The translations under genes were made by a program, and so were the position numbers. This document shows, one piece after another, positions 1,041 to 41,560 of a stretch of 64,000 nt of DNA (position 1 is the stretch's first letter; every line of letters begins with the position of its first letter). The notes under the pieces were generated by a model. That model was not told where the DNA came from, ran no database searches, and saw only the letters and a list, made by a program, of their open reading frames with translations. Source of the stretch: a virus (Duplodnaviria > Caudoviricetes); the IMG/VR virus record IMGVR_UViG_3300037067_004901, positions 32,001 to 96,000 of that record. One strand, given 5' to 3'.

Positions 1041-2008
1041 TTTTCATCTCCTTCAAGATATCATCATAAATATTATTATCTCGGAAACATTTTAATACAA
1101 AATTACGAATTTGTAGGCAACGATTTTCTACTTCGTTCTCTCTACAGGTGCATACGCACATATGATGTTTGGGTATATGATTTTCTATTATCTCTATAAG
1201 CTTCTCTTTTTTAGATATCGTAGATGGCACTTTACCAAATAAAGATTTTGCAGTTTTAATTAAAGATATTACTAAATGGTCTTTGTTCGTTTTACTTACT
1301 TTTAAGGCGTTGTCTATAATGATATTTCTTATTTCCTTTTCACTCGCCAACTCCCCGATACGACCTTCAATTTTGGCGGAGGCGAGAGCGAGTAAAGGTA
1401 TTATAAAATCATTCTGTTCTTGACAATGGTTTGCCATTATTTTTGGTGCTTCCCATTTAGATTTAAGCCCTTCAGATATTACTCTTTTATTTTCTTCTAC
1501 ATAAGAAGAAGCCTTCTTCACCGATTCTTTCAGTTGTTCGTTATTTGGTATATCATTTGGTTTCATCGAATAAACCTCCTGCTGTTTTTATGCCTTGATT
1601 AAAAGTTCGTTTACGCTCACAATCAATATGCATACAAGTAAGTCCTTTAGAAGTTTTACACACACCATCTACATAATTTTCCTAGATTAACTTCTTTAAC
1701 TCCTGTTTGGCGATGGCAAGTTCTCGTTCTCTAAAATCTTCTAAAGAAAATCGTTCTGCACAATGGTATTTTTTAGCGAAAGCTACCAATATTTCATCTA
1801 CCGTATTAATTTTTTTATTCTTCATTTCTTGGGGGGTCATTTTATAGCTCCTTTATAGTCACTTCAACTTTTTTATCATAAAAATCATATTTACTTTTAG
1901 TCAGCACTAACTCTATGCTTGGGTTACTAGGAGTATATTGTAACTTAAATTTTTTGTGCCATTGATTACCTAAATACTCTACCAACGTCTTCTTCCGTTT
2001 CTTCGCTT

Positions 2009-2674
2009 TCATTTAGGCTCCTTTGGTATATTAGTAAGAGCAGATGCAAGATAAGTTAAGTATCCTTCTGCGTTTTCAGAATGTGTATTGTGCCATTCTT
2101 TACTTGCTTCCCATAATTTTTTATTTATTTCGGGTCGTGTCATAAACTTCTCTGCCAATTGCTTTTTAAGCTTCTTATACTTTGTATGAACAATTAAGGC
2201 ATAGTCTACTATATGAGTTTTTATTTTAGTCTCTCCTGGACTAACTATATCTAATAGCATTTTAGAAGCATTGTTATATTCATCTAAAAGCAACTCTTTC
2301 TCTTTCTTTTCCTCTAATAGTTGCTTCTTTAGTTCGGCAATTTCTTGTGGCATTTTGTAACCCTTAATAATATTCCTAAGTTCATCTACCACCTCTTTCT
2401 CCACCAACTCTCCCTTTAAGAGTGAGGTAAGGATAGAGAGAGCAAATTTAACCGAACTAAGACGAGGTGGAACTGCCTCATGTTGTGATAATTCAAAATC
2501 CTCGATAGTCTGTTTCAACTGTAATTTTTTGTTTGTATCTATCACTTTATCAGGACATTTTTCACAAGTTTGACCTGCAAGAAGTTGATGATGTTTCTTA
2601 CAATAGTCTTCGGCAAGTTTAATATCTTTCCGATATTTGATGATATGATGTAAACAATTTTCTTGATTTGTCAT
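2009..2674 (-). CDS. Coiled-coil hypothetical protein, paralog of 2671-3300
   Basis: Shares GELV, EIA.LK, KQL.EKFMT..EI and ASALT blocks with its neighbour. Confidence 0.65.
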   Translation of the reverse strand: MTNQENCLHHIIKYRKDIKLAEDYCKKHHQLLAGQTCEKCPDKVIDTNKKLQLKQTIEDFELSQHEAVPPRLSSVKFALSILTSLLKGELVEKEVVDELRNIIKGYKMPQEIAELKKQLLEEKKEKELLLDEYNNASKMLLDIVSPGETKIKTHIVDYALIVHTKYKKLKKQLAEKFMTRPEINKKLWEASKEWHNTHSENAEGYLTYLASALTNIPKEPK

Positions 2675-3300
2675 TTTTTCTCCTTCGATAGAGATGTTAA
2701 CGCGGATGCAACATCATTCGATACTCTGTCTAATGTTTTTTGGTCGGGTATTAATTCTCCTATACTTATTAATAGCTCATCTTTAACTTTATTTTTAATT
2801 TCATCCAGTGTCATAAACTTCTCTAATAATTGCTTCTCAAAATTTTGATAATGTCTACAATATTTAGGTTTATATACTAAACATTTAGACATAGTTCCTT
2901 CTTCATATTTACATTTATCTTCACAACTAATACAAAGATGATATTGGTTTTCTTCTTTAAGTTTTGCGATTTCTTTTTCCAATTCTTCTACTTTATCATA
3001 TCTCTCTAAAACATCACCTATTTTATGATTTTCGAATATATTTTTATAACGAGAAATTTGTTTCTCCAATTCTTGATTATAAGCAATAGCATCTTTAATG
3101 GCTTGTGAGTGACGTTCGCAACGTTCATTTTTATTAACCAACTCACCATTCATAAATGCGCTAACAATAACGAAAGCAATTTCTTCGTATTTATTTCTTT
3201 CTTCTCCTACTTCACCGATTTCTAAATATCTAGCCGTATCTTTTATTTCTTCATTTGTGAATTGCTTCATATGAATAATTCTCCTTGTTCTATACAACAT
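2671..3300 (-). CDS. Coiled-coil hypothetical protein, paralog of 2009-2674
   Basis: Same conserved blocks plus a Cys-rich insert. Confidence 0.65.
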   Translation of the reverse strand: MLYRTRRIIHMKQFTNEEIKDTARYLEIGEVGEERNKYEEIAFVIVSAFMNGELVNKNERCERHSQAIKDAIAYNQELEKQISRYKNIFENHKIGDVLERYDKVEELEKEIAKLKEENQYHLCISCEDKCKYEEGTMSKCLVYKPKYCRHYQNFEKQLLEKFMTLDEIKNKVKDELLISIGELIPDQKTLDRVSNDVASALTSLSKEKK

Positions 3301-3326
3301 ACTTTATTGTCCATTTGCTCGATTTC

Positions 3327-3500
3327 TTATTTTGTTATCATCAACAATGTTATAAAGATGCCTATTAAAAGCGAAAATATACTCGCTAACATAAGACGCA
3401 ACATATTTTCTTGTTTTTCGCCTGTTATTATGAGCCAAACAAAAATAGCAGAACAAAACATAAAACCCAAAAGATTTACTGATAGCTTTATAAGATACAT
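3327..3500 (-). CDS. 57-aa two-TM membrane protein (not in ORF track), paralog of 9368-9538
   Basis: Hand translation MYLIKLSVNLLGFMFCSAIFVWLIITGEKQENMLRLMLASIFSLLIGIFITLLMITK. Confidence 0.7.
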   Translation of the reverse strand: MYLIKLSVNLLGFMFCSAIFVWLIITGEKQENMLRLMLASIFSLLIGIFITLLMITK

Positions 3501-3572
3501 TTGCTCGCGCCCTTTCTTATATTAAAAATAAATATAGCTTCGCACTTGATAACCGTAAACTATCATCATAAC

Positions 3573-4025
3573 CTACTGTGTGTTATATCTGTATTGAGTC
3601 TTTGCGCAAGCGTCGCCTAATCTCTTATGACATACTTTGTGCCAACCACTAACACGCTTGTTAACAGCCCATTCTTTCTTGCATTCAGGACATATCGCTA
3701 TGAACTTCTTCGCTGGCTGTATTACTGTTGCGCTATCATACGCTCTGCGCGGGGAACAACCTATTTCAACGCATTTTAATTTAAATATTCTATTATGACC
3801 ATTATAACTACCAACTAAAGCGTGCGCTATCTCGTGAAGTATAACATCAGTAACCGTTTCTTCATTATTCAATTCAACTAAACACGCCGAAAGTGTTATA
3901 GTCTGCGTTCTAAAATGAGCGCAACCAAATCTACGCTTTGCGTTATCAAAACAAAAAGTCCAATCAAGCAGATTATGCTTCTGCATTAACTTTTTTGCCT
4001 TTTTTTCGCAATGCTCAATATTCAT
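3573..4025 (-). CDS. SprT-like zinc metalloprotease
   Basis: AKRRFG motif, HEIAH zinc motif, downstream GH, C-terminal CPEC zinc ribbon. Confidence 0.85.
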   Translation of the reverse strand: MNIEHCEKKAKKLMQKHNLLDWTFCFDNAKRRFGCAHFRTQTITLSACLVELNNEETVTDVILHEIAHALVGSYNGHNRIFKLKCVEIGCSPRRAYDSATVIQPAKKFIAICPECKKEWAVNKRVSGWHKVCHKRLGDACAKTQYRYNTQ

Positions 4026-4805
4026 ATATAACCCTTATACTCGACTTCTCAGATAGTCATAACCCATTTCAACGAGTGTTTTATGCTCTTTAAATTTTAG
4101 TTGTAGCTTGTGTTTATTCTTCAGACAATTCATTATCGCATACGAAAAGAATAAACGCCTATTACGACGTTTACGACCGCTCAAATATATAAAATAACTG
4201 AGTGTGGGTTTTATCACACGTTTCCAAGTTTTGCGTTTCTCGGAAATTAATGATGGGTCTTGATACTCTAATACGTGGTCCGTTATTTTCCCGCACGTCT
4301 TGCATACTATATACGGTATGTTCTCTTGTTTACGCCCTAAAACTCGACTATCGTATTGCTTATCTTCTTTATTACTCGCTTTAAATGAAAATTTTGGGAA
4401 AACACGATTATATTCTTTTTGCGCTTCTTCATCGCCTTCTTTAATTAACTCTAACAAACGATTTTTAACTGCCTGCTTATACTGCTTTTGCTTGCTGTCT
4501 TTTAAAAGTATTTCTTCGCTTTCCTGTAACTGTGTTATAGACATTTCGCGCTGTCCTTTCGTTCTATTCTAACTCCTGCATTATAAATACAAGTTCTGCA
4601 TCTGATATACTATACTTATCTTGGAAATTGCTTATAACATCTTTACTCCAATAAGCATTGTAATTATATCGCAATAATATATCCTTTTCTAACATCTTTT
4701 GCAATATTCTCGCCAACTTACTTTTGTGTATTACAGGAAACTTCTTCATTTTTCTCGGCATATTGTTCTCACCTCGCTTTCAGTTTTAATTTACTATATG
4801 ATAAT

Positions 4806-4833
4806 AGTATATCACATAACAAACTAAATGCAA
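4806..4833 (-). promoter_or_regulatory. sigma70-type promoter
   Basis: Minus strand TTGCAT-16 nt-TATACT with extended -10 TG. Confidence 0.7.
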
Positions 4834-7561
4834 CTAGTAGGCGACGATTTACTTCACCTGCGCTATTAACTGCTCAACTTCTTTCTGATAGCTGTAATCA
4901 TTTTTGCGAATACCTAATTTCATCTTCGCTTTCTCGTAATCCATACCAGCATATTTTGATTTCTTTGCGTTCTTTAGATTACGTTCAACTGCTTCTGTAT
5001 ATTTATCGCTTAATGATTTCGCCATTTCTATTCTCCTTTCATTTCATTTTGTATTATAGCTTCTTGTATTGGAAAATGTTGCTGTATTTTACCGCAATCA
5101 GCGCAGTAAGAAAATTCTATATAATCTCCACCTTCACCTAAACCGATTGTAGCGGGTACATAACCATCATAGTTAATATCTTTATAAGTTGCAGAAAAAC
5201 AATCGCTTGTTTTTCCACTTATACTTATTATTCTATCACTTTTACAATGAATACATTTTGGCATTTTTTCTCCTTTTGCTCGACTTCTTATTTACTATCT
5301 AATTCTGAACTATCGAGACCGTACACAACAAAAGTGTTTTTTCTGTCTGTCAATTCTGCAACAACACCTTCTGTGCGTAATATATTTAACTCCTCATCAG
5401 AGCTGAATAATATCTTTGCGTTGTCTGGAATATCATTCAGTATCTTTTTTAAATCTTTAACTAACATCTATTATCACCTCACTTTCATATAATTATCGTT
5501 GCTCTCGTTTGGCTTGTTCTAATATCTCGCTAAACTTTCCATATTTTGATTTATCTACGTAGTTTATATCTTTAAATACGGGAATTAAACGATGATATCC
5601 GCGTTCTATTTTGTTATTTCTCGTCTTCTCGACAAATACAATATCAGCTTCAATAAAACGTGGTCTTACGACCAAATCATTTATGATAGCTATTGCGATT
5701 AAAAGCAAAATTCCAAAAGCAATTGCACATACACTTTCTAAATTTTTCATATCTTTCTCCTTTGTCTTATCGGTCTCCAGCACATATCTTTCTTATCATA
5801 ATAATCTATAAGACCACCGTGCTTTTCTTGTATTTGTATTGCATATTTTAATAAAGAAGATAACCCGAGTATCACATCTTTATCTATTACGCGAAACGGA
5901 TATTTATGAGCGAGAGTGTCAGTATCCTTTTTTCTTATTTTGCATAAAAAATCAAAATCATCTTTTAAATACTGTTCTCTATGATTATGCAGTTGTTGCT
6001 TTATTGAATATAAAACTTTAAAACGCTCTTTATCCGAATCTCGTGTGTCTTGCAATGCTTCTTCAATAACATTGCTCAACACAAATGCTTCGCGACCCGC
6101 TTTAAGCGTTAATGTAATATTTTTGTTTGACATATCGCAGCCTTTCTTATTTTATTTCTTCTAACTGCATTACTTGTTCTGGAATAAACATACTAAATGT
6201 CACCCAATAATATGCACGCAACGTCTTGCGTATTTTTATACCTTTTAACGTGCTATTATATAACGCTTTTGCAGAGGCATATCTGCATATGTAATCGGAT
6301 AAATTCGTTGATTGTTTTATATTGTCGAGTGAGCCATTAAGCAACGTAGCGTTACTCGTGTTACTTTCTTTATAATAGGCTTCGCGCACGCTTTGTATTT
6401 CTGAACCGTATGACAAAACGCTTTCTTTTGACTTAACTAAATCTTCGTAAACATATAAATTGGCTTGATATGCACCTAAAATTCCCATAATCATTACAAT
6501 TGCGATTATGATTGGTGCTATGCAAAATCCAGTCTTAAAATTCTTGCTTTTATCTATAAACGCCCCTAAAATAGACAACACTACAAAGAACAGCGTAAGC
6601 AATATTAAAAACATTTCAATACCCTCCCTTATCTGTTAGAGTTCATTATTTCTTCATTAAGCACGTTTTCGACTTGTGTGAAAGCCATCTCCCAAGTGTC
6701 GAAAATCGCGTTTGGCACACGCGCCATTACATTTTCACGCACTACTCGATAGTCTATACTGTCTGTTATAGAGAACTTGCTCAATTCTTCTCTAACCAAA
6801 CTTTTTATTAACTTAATATTCTTCGCACCTATGCTTCGCATATTATTTCCTTTCTTTTCTTTTCTAAACTCTATTCCTGCTCTTAAATCTTGCTCTAATA
6901 ATTCGGTATAATTATCCGCTAGTTCTGTTTTACCAGATTTTATATTTTCTAAATCTTTTTTTAAAGCTATGATTAGTTTATTTTTAAAATCTTCTATATA
7001 GTGTAGCATGTTTCTCCTTTATGATGAACAAACAGCGCCAAATAATACATTTGTCTTTTCTTGTTTTGGTAATTTTATATTTCCAACAATTTGACAAGTA
7101 GGTATCAATCGTTGTTTATTATCATCGCATTCAAATATTGCTATACCCGCATCAGCAGTATACTTTACAAACTTCACTACTTTATATTTTGCATATCCTT
7201 TTTTCGGCATTACACAAAACCCATTATAGAAAAAGTTCTCGACTTTATATAACATCATACCCTCCAAATTGGTTCGCATAATATCCCATCAGGTGTATTA
7301 GCGTGCGCAATAGCTGTCTTATCTATTGGGTCTTTTATTTTTAAAGCACTTATTGTATATTGATGTTCATTTTTTATCTGCTCATCATTTATAATACCAA
7401 CAACACCGCATACAACATATACTTTTTTACCGGCTCTTATTTCTTCTGTCTTACGAAAGAATAATTGACCACTGAATATGGGTTCTTTTTTATCTGACAT
7501 TTTTAAAAATTCTTTTACTGTTGTTCCTTTAGCAACAAGTTTATTATTTACCATTATCATT

Positions 7562-7870
7562 TTACTTGCTTTGCGCATCTCGCGACTCCTTACAGTTTAT
7601 ATCTTTACCGAGCGTAACAATTGTATATTCAAGACCGCACTTATCACATCTATACACGATAGATGTTGTGCCTAAACAAATGCGTTGTATTGTAACAAAA
7701 TAAGAATTAACGTCATTCGCACTTCCTCTTATGCTTTGCGTGTCTATTCGTTGCGGCTCTGCATAAGTTCGTGCAATCTCCTTATACTCGTGTTTACAAG
7801 TCAATACATTTGTGCAACCTGACAACAAGATACATCCAATCAACGCTATTACTAAAAACTTTTTATTCAT
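7562..7870 (-). CDS. Putative lipoprotein
   Basis: MNKKFLVIALIGCILLSGC signal peptide with lipobox; AGGAG upstream of the ATG at 7870. Confidence 0.6.
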   Translation of the reverse strand: MNKKFLVIALIGCILLSGCTNVLTCKHEYKEIARTYAEPQRIDTQSIRGSANDVNSYFVTIQRICLGTTSIVYRCDKCGLEYTIVTLGKDINCKESRDAQSK

Positions 7871-9367
7871 TTTTATCTCCTTTTTTATCATCAATAGATT
7901 TAAGACAAGTCATAGCCATTGCAAGACGCATAATGAGAGAACATTGCTCGTATTTCTTTCCGACGACTTCTTCCATATCTGTTAGTGTTGTCATATTATA
8001 TTATCTTTTCTCCTTGAAAGTTATAACCTCGCGCTCTTTCTGGTTTAAAATTACGCTTTTGCGCACCTTTTAACCATTGTTTCGCTTGTTTTTCTTTAAT
8101 ATCTTTTTTAGAATATTTCGCTAACAGCCTTCTTAAAAATTGCAATTCTTCTTCGTTTCTATAAATTTCTCGTTGGCTATAGTCTGCGCAACGCATTTGG
8201 CGTCTGTCATTTAATATTCTGCCCATTCGTTTTTTAATTTGTGCTACTGTTAATCTTTTTATCATCTTATTTTTCCTTTTACTATACAAGACTTTTATTC
8301 CATCTTCTTATCTCTTTTTCTTTCTTTACAGCACGCAACACGTGCATAAACTCCTCTTTCTGAATACTATCGAATAAATTCTTTTTCACCACTTGCTCGA
8401 CTTCATTCCCGAATATACTCACAAGTCTATTCGCTATCTGAATAGGCTTTTTCTTTAATAATTGCTGTAACTCGAACGTGCTATGTCTATGATTATCTAT
8501 CACAAACACCCTGTTCATACATCACCTCTTTGGTAGAATACCAGTCGCTAAAAATATTCTTAAAATCTTTTCGTATTTCTCTATTTCTTCTACCCAATAT
8601 TTCTTTTTTTCTTCACTTTTAGCTGTGTTATATCCAAAAACTGCGCCACCATACAAACAAGTAAACTGTCTAACAGTATGTATATTAGCTCCTGTAGCTT
8701 TAAGCTCTACTTGTCTTTCTAAATCGAAATCACATTTTATCATAGTATTAGTTTTTATTGCTTATGCGTTCAATGACTTTTATACTTTTGCATTTCGGAC
8801 ATTCTCTGTATCTTTCAATGCCACTATCAGCTTTTCGAGAACCACCAAATGGTCCACACCCGCGTGTAGCTGGGTCATTATAATGACGTGTCTTTAATAT
8901 ACCATCATGAACGAACCCGCACGCAAGACAAGCATACATAACAGTCTCCTTTTAGAAATGATAAAGTGATATAAATCCATTGATGAAATCTACACGACCG
9001 TCATCCAATATAACTTTAGTATCCATTTTTGTATACGAATCATAATTGCTTAAACACGTTCTGCATTTATCCAAGAATATTTTCTCGGCTTCTTCGTTCG
9101 AATAAAACGGTATATTTTCTTCTATCACATTATCTTTAATAACTATAACAGAGCCAAGCGCAATATCGTCTTTACCCTTAAAGAAATTGTTATGCTTACT
9201 CTTTATATAGTCAGCGAGCTTCTTAGCGCCTATAAGCGATAGTCGCGGCTCGTGTTCTCTTTGACACGCTTCGCATTTACCAGTATATATATCTCTGGCT
9301 ATATCAATATTGACTTCTCTTAACAGCTTAATGAATGGTATTTTATAATACATCGCATTGTTCTCCT

Positions 9368-9538
9368 TTATTTTATCTGTAACAGAAAAGACAGAAACAT
9401 ACCAACCCAAAAAGAGAATATACTCGCTAACATCAAGCGCATTATATTCTTTTCTCTTTCACCGCTTATTATACAGTATACATATAGTGCTGAACACATT
9501 AAAAAGCCAAACATCAATACAAGCATTCTTATAATCAT
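9368..9538 (-). CDS. 56-aa two-TM membrane protein (not in ORF track), paralog of 3327-3500
   Basis: Hand translation MIIRMLVLMFGFLMCSALYVYCIISGEREKNIMRLMLASIFSFWVGMFLSFLLQIK. Confidence 0.7.
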   Translation of the reverse strand: MIIRMLVLMFGFLMCSALYVYCIISGEREKNIMRLMLASIFSFWVGMFLSFLLQIK

Positions 9539-9551
9539 AATAGCCACCTAT

Positions 9552-9929
9552 CTATGCGAGTTTCGTATAACACATTACTTTTTCGCTTCTGTAATAATAT
9601 AATCGTATTTCTACGTTGTTAGGCTTTCGACTTGCAACTTTGCTCAAAGCAAGTCGCTCACGTGGTTCTATATAGCCGTTCTTCTTACACGTTATCCACA
9701 ACTGTCGCTTATTCTTCATCTGAACTACTATATCAATAGCACTATGCGAGCCTGCACTTCGAATAGCGAATAAAACGTCGTTTCTGTTCTTAAATGAGCG
9801 CAGTATTCGAAACTCCATCGCTTCACCTAATTTTCTATTGTTTCGACCGCGTTCTGCGTTCTGTTCATAAATCATTCGCAGGACTGTCTTATCTTCTTTT
9901 GCACAGCTTCGCACTTGCGTTCCACTCAT
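9552..9929 (-). CDS. Hjc-like Holliday junction resolvase (PD-(D/E)xK nuclease)
   Basis: GEAMEFR...RSAGSHSAIDIV...ITCKK pattern; the (E/Q)xK motif is degenerate (TCK). Confidence 0.65.
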   Translation of the reverse strand: MSGTQVRSCAKEDKTVLRMIYEQNAERGRNNRKLGEAMEFRILRSFKNRNDVLFAIRSAGSHSAIDIVVQMKNKRQLWITCKKNGYIEPRERLALSKVASRKPNNVEIRLYYYRSEKVMCYTKLA

Positions 9930-9966
9930 ATGGCTCTCGCTTTCTTTTGTGTTTCTGTATAGTAGA

Positions 9967-9994
9967 AGTATATCACGAGCGCACAGAAAGTCAA
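9967..9994 (-). promoter_or_regulatory. sigma70-type promoter heading the leftward block
   Basis: Minus strand TTGACT-16 nt-TATACT with extended -10 TG. Confidence 0.75.
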
Positions 9995-10252
9995 TGCTAA
10001 ATGTTGCCCATCATCACTACAATTACATTTAAGAATATAAAAAGTTACTTTCTGGGCAATGCGTGAGATAAGCTGATAAATAGGCTTTAAAAAGCGCAGA
10101 GAAAAGAGTATAGTATATCTACAACTAAAATGACGTGATTTGGGTCTCGGGTCTCGTGAGCGAGCCCTTCTCGGATTTTGTCTCAAAAATCAGGTAAAAA
10201 CCGTTTTACTCGCAAGTCGTTTGTCTTTAGTTCGACACCCGAGTATCAATTC

Positions 10253-10342
10253 TCGCAACTCGCAGCCACGTATCGACATACGAATATCGCAACTCGACAT
10301 TCACCAATCGACATTCACTACATATCTCTCAACTCTTAACAG
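10253..10342. repeat. Degenerate heptamer tandem repeat
   Basis: TCGCAAC, TCGCAGC, TCGACAT (x3), TCACCAA, TCACTAC with ~7-nt periodicity. Confidence 0.6.
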
Positions 10343-10975
10343 TAGATTGGTATAATCCGTTCAACTGTCAAGAGTAGAAAACTGGCTTTCGAGACTTAAC
10401 TTTCGAGAACTGGCTTTTAATAGTTGGATTTCGACATTCTATTCTCAACTATATAGAAAGTTAGTTTCTTAACGGAATAGCGGCTATAGTAAGTTCTTAA
10501 CAGAATGAACTGTAAATATGATACTCGCGTCTCGGCAATAGATAAAATCGCTTAAAAACGCTTACATTTTACGCCATTTGCTCTACTTTCTATAGGAACT
10601 AACTTTTGTTTACACAAAAAACTCGAAACTCGGATGAGCTAGTTTCACACTCAAAAGCCAGTTATTTCGCTCGGCAAAAGTTAGAAACTGGCTTTTTGTT
10701 AAGAGAATTTTTTAGTTGGTGATGTCCTAGTCTAATTACACCCGAGTGCTTTTTTCGGGTGCAGGAAAATACACTGCAAAAACACACAACAAACTACGTG
10801 AAAGTGACCAACGGTTACAAAAAAAACGACCTTCCATATGGGTGCCTGTAGGAGTCGTGGAAAATGCTAACCAAAAAAATATCTAACTTTTTATATAAAT
10901 ATATATATTCTTAACAGGAAACTTGTGCTGGTTTTGTTTAACAGATTTTTATACTTTTAACTGTTAAGAGAATTT
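10333..10975. repeat. Dispersed repeated motifs in non-coding region
   Basis: AACTGGCTTT near 10380, 10408, 10686 and inverted at 10654; TCTTAACAG/CTGTTAAGAG near 10334, 10495, 10697, 10909, 10961. Confidence 0.6.
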
Positions 10976-11137
10976 GTGTGATTTCCAATTATATAGACAT
11001 ATATCAACATAGTGCTTTTTTTCGTAACTATTGGTCACATTCGAGCGTCAAAGTGAAGTTTTTTAAATATCCATTTTTTTTACAAAATAGCTGTTTTTCT
11101 TCATTAAAACGATTTTATTTTGCAGGTTAAGATAATG

Positions 11138-11166
11138 TTGACAAGTGTATAGTATTATGATATACT
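11138..11166 (+). promoter_or_regulatory. Consensus sigma70 promoter driving a non-coding RNA
   Basis: TTGACA-17 nt-TATACT with extended -10 TG. Confidence 0.8.
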
Positions 11167-11173
11167 TCTATAT

Positions 11174-11449
11174 GTAAGCAGAGAGTTTTGCGACTTCTCT
11201 TGTTTACTCATGGTTATCGGTTGTGTTGATTACGAAAAGTAGGATAATAGTGTAAACTATGTAATTATGAGCGTAAAATTCTACATTGAACGGCGTAGTT
11301 GCTCGTAACGTGCTTACCAACACAACTCGTGTTTCGCGCAGAGTGGACATCGTGTTCACTCGCTTTCGAAGAAGAAGAAGCTGAGAATAGAAAGTGTTGA
11401 AGTTGATTCCTCCTTCACGAGTATATTTTCAGTTTCTTCTTCTTTTTTT
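11174..11449 (+). ncRNA. Candidate structured ncRNA of unknown class (~275 nt, pseudoknotted)
   Basis: Lies between promoter and terminator, no ORF; several long helices, two of them crossing. Confidence 0.6.
11369..11449 (+). terminator. Intrinsic terminator
   Basis: AAGAAGAAGAAGCTGAGAATA pairs with TATTTTCAGTTTCTTCTTCTT, followed by a T-tract. Confidence 0.7.
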
Positions 11450-11598
11450 CTGGTCAACCTTTTACATTAACCGATATAGCCACAATTCGATTAAAATGTA
11501 ATTATTTTTTTGCGAAAATTGATTGGAAGGATCCTAAATTAAGAGAATTGAAAAGTTAGCCACGGTTTGTAGTAGGCTGAGAAAAATGCTCGTTTAAA

Positions 11599-11627
11599 TT
11601 GACTTTTAGTTGTATATGTGATAAACT
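11599..11627 (+). promoter_or_regulatory. sigma70-type promoter
   Basis: TTGACT-17 nt-TAAACT with extended -10 TG. Confidence 0.6.
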
Positions 11628-11662
11628 ATAAATAAAGAAAGAAAGTTAAAAATAAAGAAAGG

Positions 11663-11905
11663 ATGGGTTGTTATATGAATAAGATAATGTTAGTTATTAG
11701 TATAGCATTAGTTATGCTGTTTGCAAATGAAGCGTCTGCGCTAAATGTAATGCGTGTCAACGGGTCTGTTACGCATAGAAGTATAAATCGAAAAGAAATG
11801 CGTAATATAACAAATCAAGATAGGGTGAATTCATCACGTTATATCTTTATAAATAACAAAAAGAGAGGGGGTGAACAAGATGAAGAAAAGGATAAAGCTG
11901 AATAA
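11663..11905 (+). CDS. Small hypothetical protein with signal-peptide-like N-terminus
   Basis: MNKIMLVISIALVMLFANEASA; downstream of promoter. Confidence 0.45.
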   Translation: MGCYMNKIMLVISIALVMLFANEASALNVMRVNGSVTHRSINRKEMRNITNQDRVNSSRYIFINNKKRGGEQDEEKDKAE

Positions 11906-12194
11906 ATATGTCGTGAACACGACTAAGGCTGGAGGGCTCGTATTTACAGCTTTGAAGACGCTCGCTAATAATAAAAAGCGAACTGACAAAGCAACGTTAT
12001 CGAGAAGTGAAGTCAATGAATTGAAGAGGGCGAAATCGAAAGACGCCTTCTTTTCACTTGTTGATAAATATATCGTAGATAGAGCTAAGATTGGCTCTGC
12101 GGCAAAACGCGCGGGTCAGACACTAAATACCGGTTATGACGCGGCTCATTATCGAGTTGCGAAAGAATTGGGTTTAGCGAAGATAGTAGCGTAA
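11880..12194 (+). CDS. Basic hypothetical protein, paralog of 13706-14125
   Basis: GAGGGGGTG SD before ATG 11880; LK.A....F.S...K...NTGYD..H...AK.L similarity. Confidence 0.7.
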   Translation: MKKRIKLNKYVVNTTKAGGLVFTALKTLANNKKRTDKATLSRSEVNELKRAKSKDAFFSLVDKYIVDRAKIGSAAKRAGQTLNTGYDAAHYRVAKELGLAKIVA

Positions 12195-12197
12195 CGA

Positions 12198-12240
12198 GAA
12201 AAGAGGGGCGAGCGTAGAAATGCGCTCGTCTCTTTTTTTG
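12198..12240 (+). terminator. Intrinsic (possibly bidirectional) terminator
   Basis: AAAAGAGGGGCGAGCG..loop..CGCTCGTCTCTTTTTTT. Confidence 0.75.
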
Positions 12241-12321
12241 GCTTGTGAAATACAGTTGGACGCGCGCTCGTCCAATGACTTTTGCATATTTTGCTCGGTG
12301 AAGTTATAGTTAGCCGAGTGC

Positions 12322-12349
12322 TTGACTTGCGCTTTGCATAGTGTATACT
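12322..12349 (+). promoter_or_regulatory. sigma70-type promoter
   Basis: TTGACT-16 nt-TATACT. Confidence 0.65.
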
Positions 12350-12399
12350 TATAGTAGAAAGCGAGAGAGAAACGAACACAAAAGAAAGCGAGTTGAAAA

Positions 12400-12543
12400 A
12401 TGCCAAAATGTAAAGAATGCAAGAAAAGCGACAAAGTAGTTATTGCGAGTTATAAGTTAAGAAACGGTAAAAAAGATAAGTATTTTGAATGTGAACGCTG
12501 TAACTGTGTTGTTAAAAGAATAAGTAAATTTAAAATAGACTAA
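12400..12543 (+). CDS. 47-aa zinc-ribbon protein (not in ORF track)
   Basis: MPKCKECKK...FECERCNC; GAAAGCGAG SD at 12384. Confidence 0.6.
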   Translation: MPKCKECKKSDKVVIASYKLRNGKKDKYFECERCNCVVKRISKFKID

Positions 12544-12553
12544 TAGAAAGGAG

Positions 12554-12748
12554 ATGAGTAAAATGTTTACACAAATACATTATGTAGAAGTAGCAAAAGT
12601 TATTAACAAGAATATACAGAAAGCAGATAAAGTTGGTATATTCTCGAAACAAGCTGTTGTAAGCGTTGCTGTGGATTTCGCAAAATTGTTTGCAAAAGAT
12701 AATGCGAAATTTGATGTTATGAAATTTAAGTCAGCGTGCGGTATATAA
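12554..12748 (+). CDS. Small hypothetical phage protein
   Basis: AGAAAGGAG SD; C-terminal F..DN..FD..KF..ACG pattern. Confidence 0.65.
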   Translation: MSKMFTQIHYVEVAKVINKNIQKADKVGIFSKQAVVSVAVDFAKLFAKDNAKFDVMKFKSACGI

Positions 12749-12887
12749 AAATAATCGAAAGCGAGGCGCGAAATGACCGAATTATTAAGATTTGTCTATA
12801 AGTTAGAAGCTGAAAGACAGAAGCGAGAGATTAAAGCGGCGCTCATTAAGTTATTAAAGACAAAACGAGCGAGAAAGGCGGTGGCTA

Positions 12888-13478
12888 ATGTCTAATATGT
12901 CGAGATTAGCGCAGGGTATCGAAGAAGCGTGCAATGCGTGTCAAGATATGAAATGCGAGGGTTGCAAAATTGTTGTAGACATTGGCGACAAAGTAGTTAC
13001 TGTCAACGGTAAGACGCACGACATTTTGAGCGTCAAGCTTAAAGAAGAAGTAAAAAAAGAAAAAGTGAAAGAAGCTTGTATGAATTATTCGAAAGGCAAG
13101 TGGAATTTCTCGAAGTTAGCACGTTTTTTGAAACACGTTGCGTGCGTTGTGTTATTGTTGTTAATAACGCACAATGCGTTTGCAGTTGAAATAAATATTG
13201 AGAAATTGGCAGACGCAATATACAAAGCAGAGGGCGGTAGTAAGACTTCGCATCCTTACGGAATATTGAAGCATTACAAGTATACAACTGCAAGACAAGC
13301 CTGCATCAACACTATAAAGCACGCATTAAAAGATTTTAATGAGCAAGGTGACTTTATAGAGTTTTTAGGAAGTCGTTATTGCCCAACACATTGGGAAAAT
13401 ACATATCAAGCTACAAGAGAAGAATATCTATTGAATAGATATTGGGTAAAGAACGTCAAATACTTCTATAATCAATAA
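12888..13478 (+). CDS. Putative lysozyme-like (transglycosylase-fold) protein
   Basis: Internal hydrophobic signal-like segment, then AIYKAEGG (catalytic Glu-like), YGI and LGSRYCP...W; a second start at ~13080 is possible. Confidence 0.5.
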   Translation: MSNMSRLAQGIEEACNACQDMKCEGCKIVVDIGDKVVTVNGKTHDILSVKLKEEVKKEKVKEACMNYSKGKWNFSKLARFLKHVACVVLLLLITHNAFAVEINIEKLADAIYKAEGGSKTSHPYGILKHYKYTTARQACINTIKHALKDFNEQGDFIEFLGSRYCPTHWENTYQATREEYLLNRYWVKNVKYFYNQ

Positions 13479-13541
13479 AATAAAATAATTTTGGGCAACT
13501 AAAAAAAATAACCGATATATTCCTATTACGGTTTGGAGAAA

Positions 13542-13583
13542 ATATAAACAGGTTATCAACATTTTATCAACAGGAAATCCACA
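13542..13583 (+). promoter_or_regulatory. Four DnaA-box-like nonamers at 11-bp period
   Basis: ATATAAACA 13542, TTATCAACA 13553, TTATCAACA 13564, AAATCCACA 13575 versus consensus TTATCCACA. Confidence 0.5.
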
Positions 13584-13705
13584 TTTAAAAAGTTTTTAAA
13601 AAGAAGTTTAAAAAAGAACTTAGGAAGGTTCCTAAAAAAATAAGCAAAAAAAATTCGAGAAGTAAAAGACAATTTGCGCTTTGTGTTTTGTGTGTGTTTT
13701 TATTT

Positions 13706-14125
13706 TTACTTCTTTGCTTTTGCTTTCGTTGTTGTCTTTGATGTCTTCTTGACTTTCGACATCTTGACAAGCGACGCTTTGACTTCTTTCTTACGTCTAT
13801 CGTTTGACGCTGTAAAAGCGTCTTTGTTTAAGAGCTTCGCTATCGACGTATGAACTTTGTCATAGTGCGTGTTTTTCGTTAACATCGCTTTGCGTGCTTG
13901 TGCGTCGAGATGCTCGACTAACAAGAACTTGTTAGCGACGCTTGTAAACTCTTTGAACGTGCGCGCGCTTTTTAGCTTTGCGCTGTCTTGCGCGTCGAAC
14001 ACATAAGCACGCTTTTCGCTTGTGTTGTCGCTGTATAAGCGAACATAAGAGAGAGCGACTTTATTTTTTATCTGCGACGCTGTTAAATTCAGCACTTTCA
14101 AAATCATCTTTTTGAGTTTTGACAT
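13706..14125 (-). CDS. Very basic 139-aa protein with Lys-rich tail, encoded without any GG/CC dinucleotide
   Basis: Own promoter (14286-14313) and GAAAGCGAG RBS; no Gly/Pro/Trp/Cys; paralog at 11880-12194. Confidence 0.8.
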   Translation of the reverse strand: MSKLKKMILKVLNLTASQIKNKVALSYVRLYSDNTSEKRAYVFDAQDSAKLKSARTFKEFTSVANKFLLVEHLDAQARKAMLTKNTHYDKVHTSIAKLLNKDAFTASNDRRKKEVKASLVKMSKVKKTSKTTTKAKAKK

Positions 14126-14285
14126 TGTGTATCTCGCTTTCTTGCGCTTTGTCTTTTACTTCTCGAACTTTACTTTTTAAATGTTTACTTACTCGACGCT
14201 ATGCTTTCGCATTAGTTTATAACGTTTTACGTTCAGCATTTAAATTTCATTATTTGTTAATGAGCGTTTAACTTCTTATGTATAT

Positions 14286-41547: not shown

Positions 41548-41560
41548 ATGGAGGAATTTT

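Follow-up and report, generated by a model that had tools for sequence, protein, structure and literature searches.

A candidate anti-ribosome-binding-site RNA in the early control region of a siphovirus-like phage

What is made from a phage early promoter that has no gene behind it on its own strand? This question is raised by a unit at positions 11138-11449 of a 64,000-nucleotide stretch of phage DNA, here called the window. The window corresponds to bases 32001-96000 of the 105.5-kb IMG/VR virus record IMGVR_UViG_3300037067_004901 (G000 below). The record has ~31% G+C and carries siphovirus-like structural genes (major head protein and tape measure); GroEL and six tRNAs are also encoded. 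Genes occupy the minus strand left of ~9930 and the plus strand right of ~11660. Hence, the unit lies within a 1.7-kb divergent early control region. This region is without a convincing gene, and its surroundings are apparently a lytic early region. Note that an 86-aa ORF at its left edge (minus strand, 9926-10186) overlaps the leftward early promoter, at 9994-9967, and also the ribosome-binding site of a gene for a 125-aa nuclease-like protein. The ORF is probably spurious and not a gene. The nuclease-like protein matches Hjc resolvase only below threshold (E 0.12).

The promoter of the unit agrees with TTGACA/TATAAT at 11 of 12 positions (coordinates of all features are in Table 1). It is also a perfect fit to the early-promoter consensus of the phage itself, TTGACA-16/17-TGnTATACT. 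In a census of the whole 105-kb record, seven perfect copies of this consensus were found, the promoter described here among them. Six are followed by a gene, and the present one is the sole exception. Placing the RNA start near 11172-11174, from the position of the -10 element, gives a product of ~275 nt (~11172-11449) with a predicted fold of -87.8 kcal/mol (z -5.05 on the plus strand and -3.3 on the minus strand). The plus strand contains no ORF; its longest ATG frames, of 10 and 13 codons, lack a ribosome-binding site. The unit hence has what is expected of a stand-alone small RNA gene: its own promoter, its own intrinsic terminator, and a transcribed strand without an ORF. Promoter, terminator and hairpins are read from sequence and statistics, from which we infer transcription. 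We conclude that an early, strongly promoted and terminator-bounded RNA, ORF-free on its own strand, is a well supported prediction for this unit.

A first-pass annotation of the same DNA had described a consensus promoter, the absence of any ORF, and an early phage RNA. The promoter was as described. The early phage RNA also agrees with our data, given the top-class early promoter, the 5' hairpin, the strong terminator and the bias of the fold towards the plus strand. Conversely, the absence of an ORF is true of the plus strand only, because the minus strand holds a frame of 48 codons (11350-11204) behind a non-canonical 9-mer that, as set out below, is used by early genes for ribosome binding.

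Table 1. Features of the unit and of the strand opposite, in window coordinates
Feature	Position	Strand	Details
Early promoter	11138-11166	+	TTGACA (11138-11143), 17 nt, TG-n-TATACT (11158-11166)
5' hairpin	11174-11207	+	-12.3 kcal/mol; z -3.0 on +, -1.7 on -
Core, holding the proposed pseudoknot	11207-11330	+	z -0.9 on +, -1.6 on -
Hairpin ATAGT/ACTAT	11247-11260	+	Present in sequence
Hairpin with GAGTGGACA/TGTTCACTC (11341-11361)	11338-11363	+	-13.4 kcal/mol; z -3.5 on +, -2.0 on -
CUCGCUUUC, exact complement of GAAAGCGAG	11359-11367	+	Directly 5' of terminator stem
Intrinsic terminator	11368-11449	+	22-bp stem 11368-11389 / 11424-11445, apical hairpin, U7 tract
UUCCUCCUUCA, anti-Shine-Dalgarno	11407-11417	+	Terminator hairpin apex; 11407-11412 mostly unpaired
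Candidate small gene	11204-11367	-	GAAAGCGAG (11367-11359), 8 nt, ATG (11350), 48 codons, TAA (11206-11204)
Candidate promoter of minus-strand ORF	11699-11727	-	TTTGCA, 17 nt, TG-n-TATACT; weaker match

At first pass the RNA was also not recognized as a known family, and an Rfam scan bears this out. At gathering score the whole window yielded tRNAs only, and no family for the unit. At E<=10, the interval 10400-11700 gave noise, with no C4, riboswitch, T-box or leader family. No homologue of the RNA was found by blastn among 50,697 phage records, or by blastn and nhmmer in syntenic metagenome loci and in G001 (also L012). The latter, of 130 kb and with a major capsid protein 80% identical, is the only close relative in IMG/VR. 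Similarly, a 25-mer and a 26-mer from the RNA had no exact match in viral, metagenome and genome collections. We therefore sought relatives through flanking proteins. The closest of them show 55-69% identity in the anchor protein, too little for intergenic alignment, and none has a counterpart of the RNA core. The RNA is thus without a sequence relative, and what relatives contribute is support at the level of design, not alignment.

Does the RNA have a defined fold? The terminator folds at -33.7 kcal/mol (z -6.2 on the plus strand, -4.75 on the minus strand), and there is no U tract after this hairpin on the minus strand. Everything before the terminator scores z -1.7 on the plus strand and -1.1 on the minus strand. 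The 5' hairpin, the ATAGT/ACTAT hairpin, the GAGTGGACA/TGTTCACTC hairpin and the long terminator had all been noticed at first pass, and each was recovered. The strand asymmetry of the local hairpins, together with G-U pairs, favours the plus strand. A pseudoknot had also been proposed, in the core, which coincides with the body of the minus-strand ORF. Both of its helices exist, with 11207-16/11262-71 (10 bp, two of them G-U) crossing 11220-28/11318-26 (9 bp, perfect). Among 1000 dinucleotide-shuffled versions of the core, 2.8% contained a 9-bp Watson-Crick helix and 0.2% a crossing pair of this kind, although this test was picked after the helices had been seen. While the two crossing helices are unusual, the stability of the core is at chance. 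Dissecting the z-scores therefore leaves the ends of the RNA solid and the core fold suggestive.

These data bear on the function proposed at first pass, namely that a pseudoknotted RNA serves as a decoy, protein sponge or ribozyme by virtue of its fold. The frequencies of the perfect long-range helix and of the crossing pair are in keeping with such a role, as are the stable end hairpins, which suggest a long-lived RNA. However, the minimum free energy of the core is no better than that of shuffled sequence, Rfam holds no matching family, the collections searched gave neither homologue nor covariation, and the core is not conserved in relatives. The decoy, sponge and ribozyme proposals found no support, and we regard action through the fold as improbable.

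We now consider the 9-mer. GAAAGCGAG, laid out as GAAAG, a bulged C and then GAG, occurs seven times in the window, where 0.26 copies are expected, and eight times in the 105-kb record. All eight copies are in the early region (window 4773-14141, plus genome position 23379, equivalent to window -8621). Six precede, by 6-11 nt, the ATG of a frame of 40-139 codons; the copy beneath the RNA is one of these. The other two are in early 5' leaders. Variants with one mismatch are seldom at ribosome-binding positions, so the exact 9-mer is under selection. Late genes of the phage have GGAGG instead. The enrichment, the start-proximal positions and the rarity of variants together argue that GAAAGCGAG is, as far as sequence can tell, a private and non-canonical ribosome-binding site of the early genes. 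An early promoter on the minus strand, at genome 23300-23530 (window ~-8700 to -8470), has a ~210-nt leader with two hairpins after it. This leader has one GAAAGCGAG away from the start codon, and the real site of the small gene, GAAAGGAGA, comes later.

Since the minus strand has GAAAGCGAG at 11367-11359, the plus-strand RNA carries CUCGCUUUC. This is the only copy, of the eight, that is antisense to local transcription. The 3' arm of the preceding hairpin supplies the first five bases of the anti-ribosome-binding-site (anti-RBS) motif. Hence, 11359-11363 are predicted to be paired, 11364-11366 fully unpaired, and 11367 largely so (0.79). Complementarity extends to 10-11 nt at the early sites at 12384 and 12757, and we found no trans complementarity to phage mRNAs longer than 9-11 nt. 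Duplexfold energies, which involved large loops, were judged meaningless and set aside.

The second motif is in the terminator apex. In sense orientation, CCTCCT is found once in ~104 kb, in this loop. On the minus strand, the corresponding AAGGAGGAA has no start codon after it. Canonical Shine-Dalgarno sites, of which GGAGGAAT at 41550 and 43584 is an example, might be bound by the terminator loop. Taken together, the complement of the private site, the anti-Shine-Dalgarno loop and the underlying minus-strand ORF point, at the sequence level, to regulation of an antisense or anti-RBS type.

The minus-strand ORF suggests a different emphasis. It could be the primary gene, encoding a small early protein, with the plus-strand RNA being its cis-antisense controller, as in a type I toxin-antitoxin-like or sar-like pair, and having no role in trans. 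The ORF is fully covered by the RNA. An ATG at such spacing with at least 40 open codons is found at ~0.2% of positions in the intergenic region, and this is the joint chance of the exact early site, the 8-nt spacer, the ATG and the 48 codons. Furthermore, the part of the RNA without above-chance structure is the ORF body, and type I modules usually combine a strong antisense promoter with a weak sense promoter, as seen here (11727). The peptide, however, has no Pfam match and no homologue in an exhaustive HMMER search of 1.84 billion representatives. Its best 15-residue hydropathy, 1.9, is equalled by 31% of random ORFs of similar length. Hydropathy thus gives no clear sign of a membrane toxin. 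The sole promoter candidate for the ORF (11727-11699) is inside an 80-aa gene of the plus strand, ~330 nt upstream of the ribosome-binding site, and matches of this quality turn up by chance about once per 15-20 kb. Nor does the ORF have a minus-strand terminator. Control in cis would also leave unexplained the unique CCUCCU loop and the 9-bp inverted repeat inside the ORF. We consider it unlikely that the RNA acts on this ORF alone. Even so, cis-antisense control is the main rival to anti-RBS regulation, or its complement. The two are compatible, because an antisense RNA to one early start also recognizes the 9-mer elsewhere.

If the complement of the private site has a function, a similar arrangement might be seen in relatives. 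L024 is distant (46% identity in the anchor protein) and has the same 9-mer, GAAAGCGAG, at eight ribosome-binding positions. A single mirror copy is present. It lies within a 3'UTR hairpin of the gene homologous to the window's 196-aa gene, and a strong terminator (z -6.7) begins 11 nt further on. Behind this mirror copy there is no antisense start or ORF, which does not fit a purely cis-acting antisense RNA. The retention of GAAAGCGAG between phages that differ so much in a neighbouring protein calls for an explanation of its own. In G001, rightward early genes use another site, AGGAGGTC. All six copies in the 130 kb are at 1405-4762. Once again a single mirror copy is seen. It belongs to an early unit with a strong promoter and an ORF-free transcribed strand, where it occupies a hairpin apex. 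In this instance an ATG comes 8 nt after the mirror copy and opens a frame of 25 codons, as the cis-antisense explanation would have it. The hairpin apex is GTTGACCTCCTTCA (GTTGA..CCTCCTTCA), and the terminator apex in G000 is GTTGATTCCTCCTTCA; 14 bases are shared, with a 2-nt indel.

Hence, each of the three phages, which between them use two different private sites, has one mirror copy. It is on an early transcript, and in two of the three it is beside a terminator. These single mirror copies are the main positive evidence, from sequence comparison, for a putative functional anti-RBS element. The elements of G001 and L024 cannot be aligned with the RNA, and so the homology is one of logic, not sequence. 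Three other loci (L015, L017 and L028) have ordinary AAAGGAGG sites, and no mirror copy was seen in the short stretches that they cover.

Some further observations concern these relatives. Leftward genes of G001 have AAAGGAGA as their site. With AGGAGGTC used rightward, this makes two ribosome-binding dialects in one early region. The first early unit of G001, with its ORF-free transcribed strand, contains 3.5 copies of a 30-nt tandem repeat, and GGTTCCATCC-like motifs are found upstream of early promoters in both G001 and L024. Positional orthology was considered between our unit and the first early unit of each of G001 and L024, also ORF-free on the transcribed strand. It was rejected, as iteron-like repeats abound in those units, which could not be aligned.

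The position of the unit could be read in another way. The divergent region around it, 1.7 kb long and ORF-free, contains iteron-like repeats, the unit is at a switch in strand (GC-)skew, and genes begin ~215 nt downstream. This would suit a leader or attenuator that controls the downstream operon (11663 onward) via a regulated terminator, or an origin-associated transcript that activates the iteron-rich region. Yet the downstream operon is served by a promoter of its own (11599-11627). We found no alternative antiterminator pairing for the terminator, which is very strong, and there is no riboswitch or T-box match. As regards an origin, transcription is directed away from the iterons, and gene orientation alone explains the skew switch. 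A leader or origin transcript is hence hardly to be expected here.

The same region has several other features. Iteron-like repeats (TCGACAT, AACTGGCTTT and CTCGCAACTCG) are spread across its left half, at window 10200-10700. A 17-nt element, TGATACTCGCGTCTCGG (10519-10535), has a 94% identical copy in the equivalent region of G001 (L012 3950-4200). The repeats and this element could be origin or operator sites. Three exact copies of TTAAGAGAATT (10699-10709, 10964-10974 and 11539-11549) are within 850 bp, with none elsewhere in the window, and a near copy at 11127-11137 abuts the -35 element of the RNA promoter. The first two copies are in mutually similar units of ~58 nt, 265 nt apart. TTAAGAGAATT may be a binding site for a regulator. 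Finally, immediately upstream of the promoter of the RNA is a 243-nt element bounded by a 27-nt inverted repeat (85% complementary; 10800-10826 / 11016-11042). This element (10800-11042; fold z -2.9 on the plus strand) could be another RNA or a DNA-level feature.

Might the unit simply be what is left of an early gene cassette after decay, with promoter and terminator retained, the coding sequence gone and no function of its own? A precedent may be found in G001, where an early unit reads MRKY-stop and resembles a truncated duplicate of the next gene (MSKYSEV...); this unit and the 30-nt tandem repeat noted above are at L012 2230-2600 and 2646-2749. In G000, however, the plus strand has neither a ribosome-binding site nor a start after the promoter, and none of the six frames has protein similarity to G000 or its relatives. 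Moreover, hairpins specific to the plus strand and two anti-RBS motifs are not expected of a remnant. We think decay very improbable. Like action through the fold and a leader or origin role, it is a weaker explanation than anti-RBS or cis-antisense regulation.

On balance, we favour the interpretation that the plus-strand unit is an early anti-RBS regulatory RNA of ~275 nt, like c4 of phage P1 or sar of phage P22, although we place its probability a little below even. The RNA mirrors the unusual ribosome-binding sequence of the early genes, so it would probably be a brake on their translation. The motif and its distribution are matters of sequence and statistics; pairing and repression we infer. 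We envisage that the 5' hairpin and the very long terminator hairpin would stabilize the RNA, which would have two working parts, CUCGCUUUC and the UUCCUCCUUCA segment of the terminator apical loop. As it accumulated, the RNA would pair with early mRNAs over their ribosome-binding regions. Pairing in trans would involve a seed of 9-11 nt and six or more sites. In cis, pairing could run along the whole 48-codon minus-strand ORF, if the ORF is expressed. Initiation would be blocked and early-gene translation thereby timed or damped.

Several further points count against anti-RBS regulation. First, a stable stem takes up five of the nine bases of the anti-RBS motif. Second, complementarity in trans is 9-11 nt only. 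Third, each mirror copy could be the site of a real antisense gene. Fourth, a repressor of early genes that is itself made from an early promoter requires a delay, for which there is so far no explanation.

How does the unit compare with known systems? Citron and Schuster, in 1990, reportedly found that exposed segments of c4 pair with the ribosome-binding region of the icd-ant mRNA and block expression. Full repression of ant requires the C4 antisense RNA (PMC8198154). Like c4 of P1 and P7, the RNA described here is a phage RNA with segments complementary to a ribosome-binding region of phage mRNA, and the likeness is one of analogy only. The c4 RNA is ~77 nt, is processed from the operon under its control and serves lysogeny. 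Ours, in contrast, is a stand-alone unit of 275 nt, whose early region is apparently lytic and whose possible targets comprise several genes. It falls outside the C4 family, whose covariance model gives no match. The sar RNA of P22 (immI) is said, from work in 1987 by Liao, Wu, Susskind and co-workers, to be transcribed opposite a gene and to cover its ribosome-binding site and start. Our RNA similarly covers a ribosome-binding site, an ATG and the whole of a minus-strand ORF. However, sar is ~69 nt and acts in cis only, on ant, whereas the minus-strand gene here is a candidate, and the 9-mer is at seven other early leader or start positions (six in the window).

Type I toxin-antitoxin modules (the fully overlapping Ibs/Sib, and bsrG/SR4 and yonT/SR6 of Bacillus prophages) likewise have a strongly promoted antisense RNA over a small ORF, with the start region in a hairpin. 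Here, by contrast, the peptide is not clearly a membrane toxin, belongs to no family, and has a doubtful promoter. In phage T4, RegA and RegB shut off early genes through sequence in ribosome-binding regions. The functional logic is the same and our RNA, if it acts as proposed, would be an RNA counterpart; RegA and RegB are proteins and share no sequence relation with it. Some Firmicutes small RNAs with C-rich loops (the RNAIII terminator hairpin, and RsaE/RoxS) pair with target ribosome-binding sites through an anti-Shine-Dalgarno loop. The RNA described here also has an anti-Shine-Dalgarno sequence in a hairpin loop, as those RNAs do, terminator hairpins included. Those, however, are host RNAs and not phage RNAs, and there is no Rfam match here. 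If it acts as proposed, the unit would be a variant within a known class, the phage antisense translational repressors.

A broader possibility, which we regard as doubtful, is that a private site (GAAAGCGAG in G000 and L024; AGGAGGTC in G001) and its terminator-adjacent RNA complement form a global switch for early translation throughout the clade, with site and mirror co-evolving. If anti-RBS regulation does operate, the early regulon would be defined both by promoters and by translation. Early genes would bear the private 9-mer as their mark, which a single abundant RNA could recognize. This would be a simple model for early-to-middle timing in lytic growth that needs no protein repressor. 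Site and mirror would also be a short sequence pair, usable as an orthogonal translational switch.
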